From: a virus
DNA: 64,000 nt
Direction: 5' to 3' (one strand)
IMG/VR virus record: IMGVR_UViG_3300045450_000145
Coordinates: 96,001-160,000 of that record
Shown: in pieces, positions 4,366 to 23,348 of the stretch
Layout: the number at the start of each line of letters is the position of its first letter
Numbering within the stretch: the stretch's first letter is position 1
Position numbers and translations under genes: made by a program
The notes under the pieces: generated by a model
The model's input: the letters and a program-made list of their open reading frames with translations, nothing else
Databases searched by the model: none
What the model was told of the DNA's origin: nothing

Positions 4366-4770
4366 ATGACTAATGTAGTTCCTGTTGCGCGCAAGCGCTT
4401 CTCGTTCGGTCCTGTGTGGTCCCGTGAAGTCATTCGTGGCACCATCACCGACCATGAAAAGCTAATTGTGCATGCCGTCAACTTGTGCGTCGGCCCTAAA
4501 AGTGAAGTCAAAGAGCTTGAGATGGAGGTGCTTCGACAGAAAGTTGCAACTAAGCTCATTGAAAATGGATGCCCATTTGATGTCAAAGCTAATCATCCAA
4601 TCACAGTTATTAACCCTGTAGAATGGTTTACACCCACCGAAATTGAATTTGATGACAAGTTTGGCGAAGACCCTAAAGGTTGCCGCGTTCGGTGGGATGG
4701 CAGCGCTTGGTTTCGCCTGAGCGATTGCAAAATTCGTATGCATAACAGTGTACAACCTGCTAAATCTTGA
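4366..4770 (+). CDS. Hypothetical protein (134 aa)
   Basis: ORF with phage-like codon usage. Confidence 0.7.
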   Translation: MTNVVPVARKRFSFGPVWSREVIRGTITDHEKLIVHAVNLCVGPKSEVKELEMEVLRQKVATKLIENGCPFDVKANHPITVINPVEWFTPTEIEFDDKFGEDPKGCRVRWDGSAWFRLSDCKIRMHNSVQPAKS

Positions 4771-4776
4771 TATAAT
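4749..4776 (+). promoter_or_regulatory. Early promoter TGTACA-N16-TATAAT
   Basis: TGTACA 4749-4754 and TATAAT 4771-4776; AGGAG RBS before ATG 4808. Confidence 0.7.
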
Positions 4777-5418: not shown

Positions 5419-5447
5419 TGTACACCTGAAATTATTCAGGTTATAAT
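5419..5447 (+). promoter_or_regulatory. Early promoter TGTACA-N17-TATAAT with inverted repeat in the spacer
   Basis: TGTACA 5419-5424, TATAAT 5442-5447; ACCTGAA/TTCAGGT inverted repeat 5424-5441. Confidence 0.75.
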
Positions 5448-5469
5448 TTAATTTTACGGAGATTGTTAG

Positions 5470-7814: not shown

Positions 7815-7988
7815 ATGTCTACTTCTGTTATTGCAGCCTTCATAACTGTCTTGCTTGGTATTATGCTTACTGTCTGGGTGGCATTCTCCTTTGCCTTGGC
7901 TGTAACTACAATCTTTGTGTTCTTCTTTAAGTTTGCAGTTGCAGCAATCTTTGTTTACCTGATGTACTTTATCTTTCTGCGGCCATGA
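7815..7988 (+). CDS. Small, very hydrophobic membrane protein (57 aa; not in ORF track)
   Basis: MSTSVIAAFITVLLGIMLTVWVAFSF...FLRP; AAGGAG RBS; ATGA overlap with the next gene. Confidence 0.75.
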   Translation: MSTSVIAAFITVLLGIMLTVWVAFSFALAVTTIFVFFFKFAVAAIFVYLMYFIFLRP

Positions 7989-11914: not shown

Positions 11915-12420
11915 AATCACGCCTCGTTACATCTCCTCAAGTAAATTTTCGTGATGACGGCTACACTACTTTATTTCTAGCTGGCACTATTGACAATGGC
12001 ACATCAGTAGATTGGCAGAAGAAGGTAGCTAATGAGCTGCAAAATGAAAAGGTAACAATCTTTAATCCTCGCCGAGAAAGTTGGAATGCTGCCCCGACAC
12101 AAGAAGACCTTGAATTCCAGATTGAATGGGAACTAGAGAGAATCGAAATGTGTGAGTTTGTGCTGATGCACTTGGAAGATGACTCAAAGTCCCCAGTTTC
12201 ACTCCTAGAATTAGGGCTGCTACTTGCAACGCCTGACTTTGAACCGCAGTATGCAGCTAGTCGTAAAAAGCTAATTGTTTCGTGCAGCCCAAAATTCTAC
12301 CGCTATACTAACGTCGCTCGGACGTGTGAGAGATATGATACAATCATTTTCCATTCTCTAGATGACGCAATCGACGTCACGCGCCAGCGCATCAGAAGTG
12401 TGTACACAAATCCTGACTGA
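11911..12420 (+). CDS. Nucleoside 2-deoxyribosyltransferase-like (NDT/Rcl-fold) protein
   Basis: LFLAGTI...WQ...IFNPRR...QIEWE...SPVSLLELG pattern; start set at the ATGA overlap at 11911. Confidence 0.8.
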   Translation: MKSRLVTSPQVNFRDDGYTTLFLAGTIDNGTSVDWQKKVANELQNEKVTIFNPRRESWNAAPTQEDLEFQIEWELERIEMCEFVLMHLEDDSKSPVSLLELGLLLATPDFEPQYAASRKKLIVSCSPKFYRYTNVARTCERYDTIIFHSLDDAIDVTRQRIRSVYTNPD

Positions 12421-12429
12421 TGTTATAAT
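12401..12429 (+). promoter_or_regulatory. Early promoter TGTACA-N17-TATAAT (extended -10)
   Basis: TGTACA 12401-12406; TGtTATAAT 12421-12429; AGGAG RBS. Confidence 0.8.
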
Positions 12430-19513: not shown

Positions 19514-19815
19514 AGTGGTTTTCACAGAAGCTCCTTAACTGGAGCAACAAGAACTCGAAGGAGCCATGGGCTTCTTTTGAGGTAAATGGCTTTGAGCCTG
19601 ATGGTAGAATTAAAGTAAACTTTAACTGGAACGATGAATTCATTAAAAAGATTCACGCAATGGGCTTTCAGGCAGAAACTGAAGATGATTCGGTACAGCT
19701 CTTCTTCTATGCATCTTCAATGAGACCGACTGCACTTGACTCGGTGGATATAGATGAAGCTGTCAGCGCAGAGCACCCCAACTTAGCAAGTGACACTAAC
19801 ATTTTAAAGCAATGA
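19507..19815 (+). CDS. Hypothetical protein (102 aa)
   Basis: KEPW...FNWNDEFI...GF pattern; coupled ORF. Confidence 0.7.
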   Translation: MVKWFSQKLLNWSNKNSKEPWASFEVNGFEPDGRIKVNFNWNDEFIKKIHAMGFQAETEDDSVQLFFYASSMRPTALDSVDIDEAVSAEHPNLASDTNILKQ

Positions 19816-20141
19816 AGCATGACAAGGGCGCAGAGCTATGTGTTAATGACTATACTGTCATCTATCGTGAAATCATGAAGATTACTAGAACTCACCCACT
19901 AAATGAAATTTTGTATGGTGATGGCCCTGAAGATGAAGCCATGTTTAATCTTAATAAAAAGTTAAACGAAGTTATTACTCAAGATGTAAATCTACAGGAG
20001 GCTTCTGGCTGGTTAAGATATACTGGCAAGTATGAAGATCGTCTACCGTGCTTCAAGGATAAAGTCAAGCTTATTAAGGAGCGGGTAATTAGTGAGCAGG
20101 GTGAAGATAAAGTTTATGACTATTTGCTAGGATTAATTTGA
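19812..20141 (+). CDS. Unknown helical protein, paralog 1 of 3
   Basis: LN-x-x-L...WLRYTGKYED-x-L-x-CF...GEDKV...LLGLI. Confidence 0.75.
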   Translation: MKHDKGAELCVNDYTVIYREIMKITRTHPLNEILYGDGPEDEAMFNLNKKLNEVITQDVNLQEASGWLRYTGKYEDRLPCFKDKVKLIKERVISEQGEDKVYDYLLGLI

Positions 20142-20455
20142 TGGATCGTGTTGAGCGGTATCATAAAATTCAAGAGATGCATTGCATTATCTGTAATACA
20201 TTAGAAGTAAGGTCCATGATGAATGGCGAGCTAGATCATGTGCAAGCTAAAAACATAGATGAATTAAATTTAGTGTTGCAAAATGCAATTAATAATGACA
20301 GCAACCACATCTTAGATATGATGTGGTTGCGCCTCACTGGCAAATTTAAAGATATTCTTTCATGTTATAATGAGAAGTTAGACTTAGTGTATTGTAAAAT
20401 GGTCTCGCTCGAAGGTGTAGACAAAGCAAAAGCACTATTGATTGGAATGATATGA
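20138..20455 (+). CDS. Unknown helical protein, paralog 2 of 3
   Basis: WLRLTGKFKD-x-L-x-CY...GVDKA...LIGMI. Confidence 0.75.
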   Translation: MMDRVERYHKIQEMHCIICNTLEVRSMMNGELDHVQAKNIDELNLVLQNAINNDSNHILDMMWLRLTGKFKDILSCYNEKLDLVYCKMVSLEGVDKAKALLIGMI

Positions 20456-20772
20456 ATAATACACAAGACAAAATAACTGTTGCAATGGATATTGCAACAG
20501 AAGTTGATAATATTACAGGGTCTGATTTAATTGATTGGGTATTCCATAACACTCCACTATCTCAAGAAGCTGCTTATAATTTAAATGATAAGCTGAAGAA
20601 AGTTATTAATGAATCCTCTGGCAGATTTGAGGATGTTACATGGCTCAGGGCGTGCTTTAGGTACCGTGATGCCATTTCATGTTATAATGACGTAGTACGT
20701 ATTGCTTACGATAAAATTGCAGCTGTAGATGGCGATGATAAGGCGAAGCAGCTATTAAAGGGATTACTATGA
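20452..20772 (+). CDS. Unknown helical protein, paralog 3 of 3
   Basis: WLRACFRYRD-x-I-x-CY...GDDKA...LKGLL. Confidence 0.75.
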   Translation: MNNTQDKITVAMDIATEVDNITGSDLIDWVFHNTPLSQEAAYNLNDKLKKVINESSGRFEDVTWLRACFRYRDAISCYNDVVRIAYDKIAAVDGDDKAKQLLKGLL

Positions 20773-21797
20773 AGAAACGTCGGATGGTTGTTGACACGGC
20801 AAACTTGCTATTCAGGGTTGCATCAGCTCATGGAAAGTACAACGCTGGTCAAGGCAGTGCAGAAGATCAGGCCGGATTGGCGATGCACATCGCACTCAAC
20901 ACGCTCAAGAGTCATTACAACAAAGTCAAGCCAGACCAAATTGCTTTAACTTTTGAAGGCAGCAAAAATTGGCGGAAAGAATATACTCGATCCGAAGAAT
21001 GCGTATCTAAGCGCATCTACAAAGCAAATCGAGTCAAAGATGACTCTATGATTCCGTTCTTTGAACTCATTAAGGCATTTGAGCAGCTTGCTCGAGAACA
21101 CACTTCACTTGTTTGTTTGGGCAATCCTATCTGCGAAGGCGACGATCTGTTCGGCGCGTACATTGAAAAGTACTGTGGTGAAGGCGACGACGTGCTAGGC
21201 TTGTCTGGTGACAAGGACTTTGTGCAGTTCGTAAAGCGCTTCCCCAACTTCACTCTCCTAAATCCTGATAAGGCAGGTGCGTCACGACACCTTGACAAGA
21301 AGGGCAATGAGATTGATGGCGAGTACTTCATGTTTGAGAAGGCATTTAGGGGAGACGTCGGGGACAACGTCATGCCTGCATATCCACGTGTTCGATCTAC
21401 TCGCCTAGCTAAAGCGTATAATGACCCATACGAACTCACCAATATCATGAACGAAACCTGGACCTTTGATGAGCCAGAAACTGGCAATGAACGCGTATTC
21501 CGGGTTGGTGACCTGTTTGAAGAGAACATGCTCTTGATGAGTCTGATGCACCAGCCAGAACATGTACGTCAAGAGATGTTCAGAACCCTTGATCATGAGG
21601 TGCAGAATCACGGCCAATTTAATTTTTTCGCATTTATGAAATTTTGTGGTAAGTACAAGCTGAATAAGATCGCTGAAGATGCAACATCGTTCGTTGAGAT
21701 GTTTAGCTGTACTGGGCAAAATACTGAATTTAAGGAAGAAGTAAAGGCAAATATTGCAGAGAAGAAGGCAAAGAAGGCATCATCTCTGGTGTTCTAA
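20769..21797 (+). CDS. rnh: T4-like RNase H / 5'-3' flap exonuclease
   Basis: VVDTANL, YKANR, EGDD, SGDKDF, GDVGDNV motifs. Confidence 0.92.
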   Translation: MKKRRMVVDTANLLFRVASAHGKYNAGQGSAEDQAGLAMHIALNTLKSHYNKVKPDQIALTFEGSKNWRKEYTRSEECVSKRIYKANRVKDDSMIPFFELIKAFEQLAREHTSLVCLGNPICEGDDLFGAYIEKYCGEGDDVLGLSGDKDFVQFVKRFPNFTLLNPDKAGASRHLDKKGNEIDGEYFMFEKAFRGDVGDNVMPAYPRVRSTRLAKAYNDPYELTNIMNETWTFDEPETGNERVFRVGDLFEENMLLMSLMHQPEHVRQEMFRTLDHEVQNHGQFNFFAFMKFCGKYKLNKIAEDATSFVEMFSCTGQNTEFKEEVKANIAEKKAKKASSLVF

Positions 21798-21821
21798 GAT
21801 AGAAAATATGTTATAATGAAT

Positions 21822-21935
21822 CTTAACTTATGAAAAGCACTGCTTTCTGGAATTGCCAAAGTGACTTCGGTAGTTGTTTGTTGATATCGTTGAACGACAT
21901 CCAGAAAGTTAGGCAACTAAACTATGTAAGTTAAG
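21822..21935 (+). ncRNA. Candidate structured non-coding RNA / structured leader
   Basis: Starts just after TGtTATAAT (21809-21817); perfect 9-bp helices 21822-21830/21927-21935 and 21843-21851/21900-21908; extra TTGCC/GGCAA pairing. Confidence 0.5.
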
Positions 21936-22026
21936 TTGTATTACCGGTTCCTATATTGGGGTGCGTTTAAAGTTGCTATCGCGCAATTGTAATAATTACC
22001 GGTTTTACTCATAATATGAGGTGCAA

Positions 22027-22200
22027 ATGCTGTCATTGTTTTTCACAATCATTTACTTCTTCGCATACGGCGTATTAGCATTTGTTATCCATTGCAAAAT
22101 CATGGATACACTGGATAATGGGCAATTTGCCGAACCAGTTGTATTGAGTTGGCTCTATATTCTAGTGCTATGCATTTTGGCTATGCCTATTATTAGATAA
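22027..22200 (+). CDS. Small two-TM membrane protein (57 aa; not in ORF track)
   Basis: MLSLFFTIIYFFAYGVLAFVIHC...LCILAMPIIR; GAGGTG RBS. Confidence 0.7.
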   Translation: MLSLFFTIIYFFAYGVLAFVIHCKIMDTLDNGQFAEPVVLSWLYILVLCILAMPIIR

Positions 22201-22234
22201 AATAATAAGGTTGAAATAAAGCCTGTTTTTCTCC

Positions 22235-22242
22235 TATAAATA
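22235..22242 (+). promoter_or_regulatory. T4-type late promoter TATAAATA
   Basis: Exact T4 late consensus upstream of a structured leader and ATG 22331. Confidence 0.75.
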
Positions 22243-22330
22243 ATTGTGATTGAGAATCTTACTCACCACAACGGGTTGCATGATTTTGCATAAAACGTTT
22301 ACGTTTTCCCAGCCACTTAGGAGATAAACA

Positions 22331-22786
22331 ATGGCAACAGCAGCTCTACCAGGCCCAAAGGGGCAATTCGCTAAGATTGAAAAGCAAGAAACAAATCTAA
22401 ATCACGTTTTCCTAATTGATTGGAAAGACGACGGCATGCTCCGCGAAATCGCGGTTGTCTTAGAGGCACCAGACGGTACCATTTATGGCATTCAAGTTGA
22501 TCGCCTTCACCCAATTGACAAGCAGCGCCTCAAGAAGTTTATTACTTCTGTTCACGCTGACAAGTACCCACTATGGGAACTACTCTCACAGGGCAAGCTA
22601 AACAACGGCGTCAACCCACTTGACTTCTTCCACATGAACTACGTTGAGAAGAAGGCTCCACGTGGTGCTGTGCTTGGGGGAGGTTTAGCTGATGTCGCCG
22701 TATATCAAGATAACGGCGTTCAGATCGGTTCTGAGTTCTCAGACCCTCGCGGCGCTCAAATCGCACAAGAAAAGCCGCCAATCTAA
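22331..22786 (+). CDS. Late hypothetical protein (151 aa)
   Basis: Strong RBS TTAGGAG; biased codon usage; late promoter. Confidence 0.85.
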   Translation: MATAALPGPKGQFAKIEKQETNLNHVFLIDWKDDGMLREIAVVLEAPDGTIYGIQVDRLHPIDKQRLKKFITSVHADKYPLWELLSQGKLNNGVNPLDFFHMNYVEKKAPRGAVLGGGLADVAVYQDNGVQIGSEFSDPRGAQIAQEKPPI

Positions 22787-22810
22787 ATTAGCTTTTTAAG
22801 TTAATGTGTT

Positions 22811-22842
22811 ATAATGGGCTCTCTATGGGCCCATTATTTTTT
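22811..22842 (+). terminator. Rho-independent terminator overlapping an extended -10 box
   Basis: ATAATGGGC-tctctatgg-GCCCATTAT-TTTTT; TGtTATAAT at 22807-22815. Confidence 0.75.
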
Positions 22843-22856
22843 CCCGAGGCAAATAA

Positions 22857-23276
22857 ATGACAAGTAACATTCATCACCCAAACGTACAATTTGCAAACAG
22901 CGGAGTCGTTATTGACTCTAGGTTGGAGCATGGAGATGATGAGCTCAAGATTTGGATTTTGGCTCGGAAAGACTTAAATCTATCCACCGGCAAGTGGATG
23001 GCTCAAGCCGCTCATGCTGCTGGTTTACTTATGAATCAAGCCGGGGATATTAATGAATACATTGTCCATGGTCAAGCCAAAATTGTTGTCGGCGTGAATA
23101 ATAAAGCCCAGCTGGATGACATTATAGATGAGGTATTTAAGATGGGAATCAATGCGTGTCTTGTAAAGGATTCAGCTCGAACTGAGCTAGATATTTCAAC
23201 ATACACTTGTGGTGCAATTGGGCCATGTAGAAAGAGCCAACTACCTAAGTCAGTCACCACACTGCGCTTATTTTAA
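22857..23276 (+). CDS. pth2: Peptidyl-tRNA hydrolase, Pth2 (archaeal/eukaryotic type)
   Basis: RKDLNLSTGKWMAQAAHA, QAKIVVGV, VKDSARTE, TCGAIGP. Confidence 0.92.
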   Translation: MTSNIHHPNVQFANSGVVIDSRLEHGDDELKIWILARKDLNLSTGKWMAQAAHAAGLLMNQAGDINEYIVHGQAKIVVGVNNKAQLDDIIDEVFKMGINACLVKDSARTELDISTYTCGAIGPCRKSQLPKSVTTLRLF

Positions 23277-23319: not shown

Positions 23320-23348
23320 TTTACAAAAGGTTCGAATGTGTTTATAAT
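23320..23348 (+). promoter_or_regulatory. Early promoter TTTACA-N17-TATAAT
   Basis: T4 early-like GTTTACA -35 and TATAAT 23343-23348. Confidence 0.75.

Follow-up and report, generated by a model that had tools for sequence, protein, structure and literature searches.

A possible lineage-specific accessory cassette with an early promoter and a structured leader behind the rnh gene of an uncultured giant phage

Stem-loops in the 5' untranslated region, of the type found in the Escherichia coli ompA leader, stabilise mRNA against 5'-end-dependent decay. In type I toxin-antitoxin systems such as hok/sok, a small hydrophobic protein is encoded behind a long structured leader with a short upstream ORF, and the RNase III processing sites of phage T7 are intergenic, each an interrupted long hairpin between genes of one transcript. 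Transcription of regions that hold no ORF has been described for the jumbo phage PA5oct, in which four such regions (ncRNA001-004, 236-619 nt) were defined by RNA-seq, without known promoters; the two highly transcribed ones have no sequence relatives (PMC7318152). The locus described here can be set beside each of these systems, and beside a moron-type cassette found at the same position in relatives of the phage itself.

The locus lies in a window of 64,000 nucleotides, bases 96001-160000 of a 183.5-kb IMG/VR virus record with an estimated completeness of ~51%; all positions below are window positions unless stated otherwise. In this uncultured giant phage, the 229 bases at 21798-22026 form a non-coding spacer between rnh and a 57-aa ORF. 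The genome is tightly packed, and within its 183 kb the spacer is one of only five ORF-free gaps of at least 150 nt outside the tRNA region. That region, a cluster of 19 tRNA genes at G000:C1:7530-18645, is near the start of the record and outside the window, in which ARAGORN found no tRNA or tmRNA. The features of the spacer and of the slot to which it belongs are as follows:

20769-21797, plus strand: rnh / flap endonuclease gene, 342 aa (PF02739, E 4.7e-12); left border of the slot
21809-21817, plus strand: predicted promoter of the extended -10 type, TGtTATAAT, lacking a good -35; it places +1 near 21824-21826
21822-21935, plus strand: outer helix (21822-30 / 21927-35), 9-10 bp, a perfect inverted repeat, context dependent
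21830-21934, plus strand: ORF34, 34 codons, no RBS, starting 12 nt after the -10
21840-21911, plus strand: SL1, Y-shaped, a 10-bp closing stem and two hairpins (MFE -22.7 kcal/mol)
21913-21939, plus strand: SL2, a hairpin competing with the outer helix (mean probability 0.9-0.96 for RNA starting at 21824 or extending to 22080)
21943-22003, plus strand: SL3, an ACCGGU/ACCGGU closing stem around an inner hairpin, then UUUU (probability 0.9-0.99)
22008-22020, plus strand: weak 5-bp hairpin overlapping the Shine-Dalgarno sequence GAGGTG (22018-22023)
22027-22200, plus strand: presumed cargo, an ORF for a small membrane protein of 57 aa that has two hydrophobic segments; ATG at 22027
22235-22330, plus strand: putative T4-type late promoter TATAAATA (22235-22242) and conserved structured leader; right border of the slot
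22331-22786, plus strand: conserved core gene, 151 aa, function unassigned, with 44-75% identity in relatives

The product of rnh carries a 5'-3' exonuclease/FEN domain (PF02739), and tblastn matched the gene to RNase H-annotated genes of RsoM2USA, XacN1, RaK2 and 121Q-type jumbo phages at 29-45% identity. Homologs are plentiful, the closest (P0002-P0011) being 72-77% identical; a search of genome contigs with rnh returned no relative. About 40 relative loci were drawn from IMG/VR and JGI metagenomes, with rnh identities of 41-75%. In about 25 relatives rnh and the 151-aa gene are syntenic, with the 151-aa gene always the next core gene, and what lies between them differs. L020 (75% identity), L011 and L043 have a PQ-loop membrane protein (PF04193) abutting rnh; L008 (73%) has an ADP-ribosylglycohydrolase (PF03747) in the slot; L001, L002, L006 and L009 carry other ORFs; and the slot of L004 is empty. 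In L021 and L046 (70-73%) the slot holds a cassette with a promoter (TGTACT-N14-TGgTATAAT, 27 nt past the rnh stop), a Shine-Dalgarno sequence, a 121-aa acidic ORF, and a strong terminator. All of these variants then continue into TATAAATA, the late promoter, and into the leader that precedes the 151-aa gene, a gene for which Pfam and PHROG searches gave no family. The junction between rnh and the 151-aa gene is a hypervariable accessory slot. Its GC content in our phage is 0.35, as compared to 0.46-0.50 in the flanking core genes.

As in morons, what occupies the slot is a lineage-specific insertion between syntenic core genes. The likeness is closest to the cassette of L021 and L046 in several respects: both lie right after rnh, both have an extended -10 promoter, lineage-specific cargo and low GC, and in both the next core gene follows with its conserved late promoter. 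The two differ in that the leader here is structured and ~200 nt long, as compared to ~20 nt in L021, and that the cargo here is an ORFan with no clear terminator behind it. The cargo proteins of the relatives have no match in this slot. A decayed PQ-loop gene was considered and rejected (hhalign probability 6.5%, HMM 2.8 bits), the similarity being confined to hydrophobic segments. On either side of the slot, two further observations concern gene content. Upstream, at 19812-20772, are three tandem paralogous genes of ~105-109 aa, with function unassigned and low GC (0.33). Downstream, the PTH2 gene (22857-23276) is missing in the relatives between the 151-aa and 213-aa genes; just before it, at 22807-22847, a promoter and a terminator share sequence, in that a TGTTATAAT box overlaps with a strong terminator-like hairpin and T-run (22811-22837) in the hairpin's 5' arm.

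The best-supported part of the finding is the promoter. In the whole record TGnTATAAT is found 18 times on the plus strand and twice on the minus strand; 12 of the 18 plus-strand sites are intergenic, and 11 of those 12 lie 6-41 nt before a plus-strand start codon. Given this strand bias and proximity to genes, the promoter of the original prediction, TGtTATAAT at 21809-21817, is plausible, and on such motif evidence we regard it as credible. It is also atypical, being 210 nt from the next convincing gene. The apparent consensus of the early promoters in the record (G000) is (G)TGTACA - ~14-17 nt - TGnTATAAT(T), and promoters of this type can be seen, for example, at 2287-2350, 4730-4776, 5419-5469, 12395-12429, and 23320-23348. 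Several TGnTATAAT sites have a GTGTACA -35-like box ~14 nt upstream; the 21809 site has no such box. Two long ORFs of 125 and 392 aa (G000:C1 ~29708 and ~53720; window coordinates -66292 and -42280) lack a Shine-Dalgarno sequence and have their ATG exactly 6 nt after TGnTATAAT, which makes them candidates for leaderless mRNAs. Two of the three tandem paralogs upstream of rnh carry TGTTATAATGA as C-Y-N-E/D codons, a 12-nt identity to the spacer promoter that is probably a coincidence.

A standard terminator scan found no intrinsic terminator on the plus strand between 21798 and 22330, and downstream of the cargo there is a weak hairpin with a U-run (22179-22231, z -0.14). The 57-aa membrane ORF has its Shine-Dalgarno sequence 3 nt before the start codon, and apart from the weak hairpin that overlaps this sequence its initiation region is unstructured (z +1.36). 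No homolog of the ORF was found in 5.8 billion proteins, IMG/VR, GenBank phages, Pfam or PHROGs; another hydrophobic 57-aa ORF in the window, at 7815-7988, was rejected as a paralog, the two sequences looking unrelated by inspection.

All of the sequence features named in the original prediction (promoter box, helix arms, short repeats, and ORF34) were found at the positions it gave. The perfect 9-bp arms are at 21822-30/21927-35 (outer) and 21843-51/21900-08 (inner); TTGCC/GGCAA, CACT/AGTG, and TATTAC/GTAATA are present where they had been placed; and ATTACCGGTT occurs twice as a direct repeat, at 21940-49 and 21995-22004. Of the two nested helices that these arms were proposed to form, the inner is robust whereas the outer is lost in realistic transcript contexts. 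The probability of the outer helix is 0.98 in the isolated 114-mer (21822-21935) and ~0.6 if the RNA ends at 21945-60, and falls to <=0.01 in the whole spacer or with a 5' end at 21824 and a 3' extension, because 21913-21939 folds as a hairpin of its own (SL2). With the outer helix lost, the extreme 5' end is predicted to be single-stranded. SL1 is the only robust domain, with a pairing probability of ~0.97-1.0 in every context folded (partition function); as a 72-mer it has z -3.59 and an MFE frequency in the ensemble of 0.30. A conformational switch had also been suggested, and a near-isoenergetic alternative does exist; it sets the outer helix against the hairpin at 21913-21939 rather than using the pairings that had been named. 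The competing CACT/AGTG fold has a pairing probability of ~0, and so has the TATTAC/GTAATA helix that was to define a second domain. That domain (21936-22026) has z -0.62, no better than shuffles; its ACCGGU cores pair mutually, as SL3, which includes both ATTACCGGTT repeats.

Two longer-range pairings were also noted. Pairing of 21831-39 with 22037-45, joining the 5' end to the start of the membrane ORF, was set aside; its probability ranges from 0.93 to 0.0 by transcript length. A perfect 12-bp inverted repeat, TGCAAAATCATG / CATGATTTTGCA, has one arm in the coding sequence of the 57-aa ORF (22093-22104) and the other in the 151-aa gene's leader (22279-22290). Several weaker inverted repeats connect these two regions as well; the repeats are not colinear and thus probably due to chance.

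The reading that we prefer, with a probability of about 40%, is that the region from 21798 to ~22230 is a lineage-specific accessory cassette in which an early promoter and ~200 nt of structured leader precede a small membrane-protein gene. A host-sigma70-type extended -10 promoter at 21809-17 would start a transcript near 21824, which would pass through the leader, meeting no terminator, into the two-segment membrane ORFan at 22027-22200. The leader would be a chain of local stem-loops (SL1, SL2, SL3, and the weak hairpin touching the Shine-Dalgarno sequence) rather than one closed 114-nt domain. If active at all, its structure would work in cis, in protection from 5'-end-dependent decay, in translation, or in both; start site, co-transcription with the membrane ORF, and cis function are all predicted from the DNA, and the last of these is pure inference. 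Support for this reading comes from the promoter motif, which is strand-biased, intergenic and gene-proximal across the record; from the slot, which differs in content among the relatives and here is low in GC; from L021 and L046, where a promoter at the same position is followed by another gene, a strong terminator and the same late promoter; and from SL1, which is stable in all contexts. It comes also from the plus strand between 21798 and 22330, where no terminator-like site was seen, and from a membrane ORF with a Shine-Dalgarno sequence and an open initiation region. Against the reading stand the leader's length of 210 nt, atypical for a phage whose promoters are usually 6-41 nt from a start codon; the absence at this promoter of the GTGTACA box that several others have; and a structure signal that ranks no higher than the top ~3% for this genome and is equal on both strands. 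In addition, the 57-aa ORFan could be spurious in AT-rich DNA.

Comparison with the described leaders and processing sites gives partial likenesses. As in ompA-type leaders, a stable stem-loop lies near the predicted 5' end of the mRNA; here, however, SL1 starts ~16 nt from the implied +1. As in hok/sok, a small hydrophobic protein is encoded behind a long structured leader that holds a short ORF, but no antisense promoter was found (there is no promoter-like site on the minus strand in 21798-22200), ORF34 does not overlap the membrane ORF, and for the 57-aa protein, which has two hydrophobic segments, neither Pfam nor PHROGs gave a family match. The interrupted long intergenic hairpin recalls the RNase III sites of T7. 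It differs from them in that a coaxial stack of 20 bp could form only with the outer helix, itself unstable in context, and in that no such family exists in this phage, where a covariance model built from the element retrieved the element alone.

The first alternative to the cassette and its leader, and the next in probability, is that the structure has no function. The spacer would then be AT-rich filler that evolves rapidly, or what is left of a cargo gene since lost from this high-turnover slot, and its inverted repeats would have arisen by chance or by template-switch (quasi-palindrome) mutation. We consider this doubtful, although much of the fold statistics agrees with it. The isolated 114-mer (-31.3 kcal/mol) does fold better than its dinucleotide shuffles (z -3.37), as would be expected of the structured RNA that had been proposed; the minus strand, however, is its equal (z -3.55), and of 422 random 114-nt windows from the record, 2.8% have z <= -3.37 and 4% have z <= -3. 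Since both strands score alike, the fold signal stems from perfect Watson-Crick DNA palindromes and points to no strand. In a sliding scan of GC-regressed MFE on the plus strand, the best overlapping window ranks 33/3363. The nested pair of perfect 9-bp helices, while unique in the window, was found in 9% of Markov-simulated 64-kb windows. The instability of the outer helix in context, a second domain that is not significant, and the absence of any conservation that we could find are likewise what functionless sequence would give. On the other side, long ORF-free gaps are rare in this genome, and the window's sole nested perfect-repeat pair sits exactly in one of them, directly behind a promoter motif, a placement that makes chance less comfortable (perhaps ~1-2%, by a rough post hoc estimate). 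Nor was any trace of a decayed gene seen: neither the cargo proteins of the relatives nor the PQ-loop profile matches the slot.

The absence of conservation rests on several searches. Rfam 15 at gathering thresholds gave no match in the whole 64-kb window, which agrees with the statement of the original prediction that the spacer matches no recognised RNA family; the scope of Rfam takes in 6S, Y RNA/YrlA, tRNA-like RNAs, riboswitches, and self-cleaving ribozymes. A permissive search (E <= 10) of 21600-22400 produced only four chance-level matches of 15-20 bits, against cut-offs of 39-90. The spacer had no blastn match in GenBank phages, and scans of IMG/VR and GTDB genomes with a helix pattern and with 21-mers came back empty. 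BLAST and a single-sequence covariance model found nothing alike in the 30 to ~40 relative loci, or in four related phage records searched in full, among them a complete 358-kb genome. The sole weak BLAST match, in G001, was to GC-rich, coding-like sequence and was rejected as chance. Homologous intergenic regions were sought for an analysis of covariation and none was found, nor was a second copy in the record. A MITE or other mobile element was considered for a terminal inverted repeat of 17 nt (82%), and dropped because the record holds just one copy of the element; none was found in the relatives or in IMG/VR. Among the sequences searched, the spacer thus appears to be unique to this phage.

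These same results bear on a second alternative, an independent trans-acting small RNA of ~115-185 nt that would start near 21824 and acquire its 3' end through processing beyond 21935 or else at the ACCGGU hairpin and UUUU (~22007). The promoter immediately in front, the robustness of SL1 and the short U-run after SL3 suit such an RNA, and PA5oct supplies a precedent with four transcribed regions of 236-619 nt that have neither ORFs nor sequence relatives (PMC7318152). PA5oct is, moreover, a jumbo phage of the clade whose RNase H-like genes match this rnh; it differs in that the present spacer has a promoter motif, is known from sequence alone, and has no blastn similarity in GenBank phages. 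What makes an independent small RNA unlikely is that it needs a 3' end which the sequence does not provide: no terminator passes the standard scan, and SL3 folds no better than shuffles, with its four U's partly within the stem. There is also no Rfam family, no homolog and no second copy, and no target or partner could be named. With no Rfam match, no terminator, strands that fold equally and no homolog anywhere searched, neither the new ncRNA nor the switch of the original prediction found backing. Its more specific form, an orphan promoter-driven RNA of the same size with a three-way junction, bistable between outer helix and SL2 and serving as a decoy or regulator in trans during early infection, we hold to be quite unlikely. 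A 6S-like mimic fares no better: the predicted folds are a Y-shaped 72-nt domain and separate hairpins, not a ~180-nt rod, and there was no Rfam match to 6S.

A third alternative, which we consider improbable, is that ORF34 is a real micro-protein gene with a short leader under the 21809 promoter, its RNA structure being incidental. Its start, 12 nt after the -10, falls within the 6-41 nt seen at 11 of the 12 intergenic TGnTATAAT sites, between the exact 6 nt of the two long ORFs described above and the 14 nt of a 54-aa ORF elsewhere in the record that has no obvious Shine-Dalgarno sequence. ORF34 itself has no RBS, however, and its start is too distant from the -10 for a true leaderless mRNA. 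Searches of 1.84 billion representatives and of GenBank phages gave no homolog for it, and Pfam no family; its stop codon, moreover, comes from the inverted repeat, where a TTA in one arm dictates a TAA in the opposite one. A 40-aa ORF on the minus strand likewise gave an empty homolog search. The leader-peptide explanation that had been offered for ORF34 thus draws support from neither homology nor an RBS, and a leader-peptide attenuator is improbable too: no terminator was found, and the alternatives of outer helix and SL2 involve none.

Least probable of all is an element acting at the level of DNA, with the palindromes and the two ATTACCGGTT sites serving as protein-binding sites, for example as an operator pair. 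In its favour, the two strands have equal fold scores; of only three copies of TTACCGGTT in 183 kb, two stand within 55 bp here; and the second ATTACCGGTT lies inside the spacer of a second, weak promoter-like site (TTGTAA-17-CATAAT, 21987-22015). But that site scores 9/12 and would leave the Shine-Dalgarno sequence no room, no regulator gene is adjacent, nothing is conserved in the relatives, and a repeat of 10 nt in a stretch of 229 nt departs only marginally from expectation.

A more promising candidate for a conserved RNA than the spacer is the leader of the 151-aa gene, which bounds the slot on the right at 22235-22330. Over 109 nt it is 78% identical to its counterpart in L020, while the flanking slots are unrelated, and its motif is common to 16 distinct relatives (the loci include L020:3828-3937, L009:4485-4584, L035:3559-3660, and 12 more). 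In the hairpin after TATAAATA the sequence varies and the pairing is kept, with double changes in six of the seven predicted pairs of a four-sequence alignment. The next element, GGG(G)UU..AAAACGU-N3-4-ACGUUAUCCC at 22273-22310, folds as a hairpin closed by GGG/CCC; in L006 and L047 an A-U pair is swapped for U-A, AACGU/ACGUU becoming AUCGU/ACGAU. Rfam has no match for this leader, which may be a cis-regulatory RNA or a protein-binding motif of the jumbo-phage clade.

As matters stand, the spacer is of small import, one more lineage-specific non-coding stretch in an accessory region of an uncultured jumbo phage. If its RNA were discrete and abundant, it would be a further example of the ORF-less transcripts of jumbo phages, which are poorly understood. 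For the biology of the phage and its clade, the analysis makes the early promoters of this phage recognisable as TGnTATAAT, and it maps the junction between rnh and the next core gene as a hot spot for accessory cargo.
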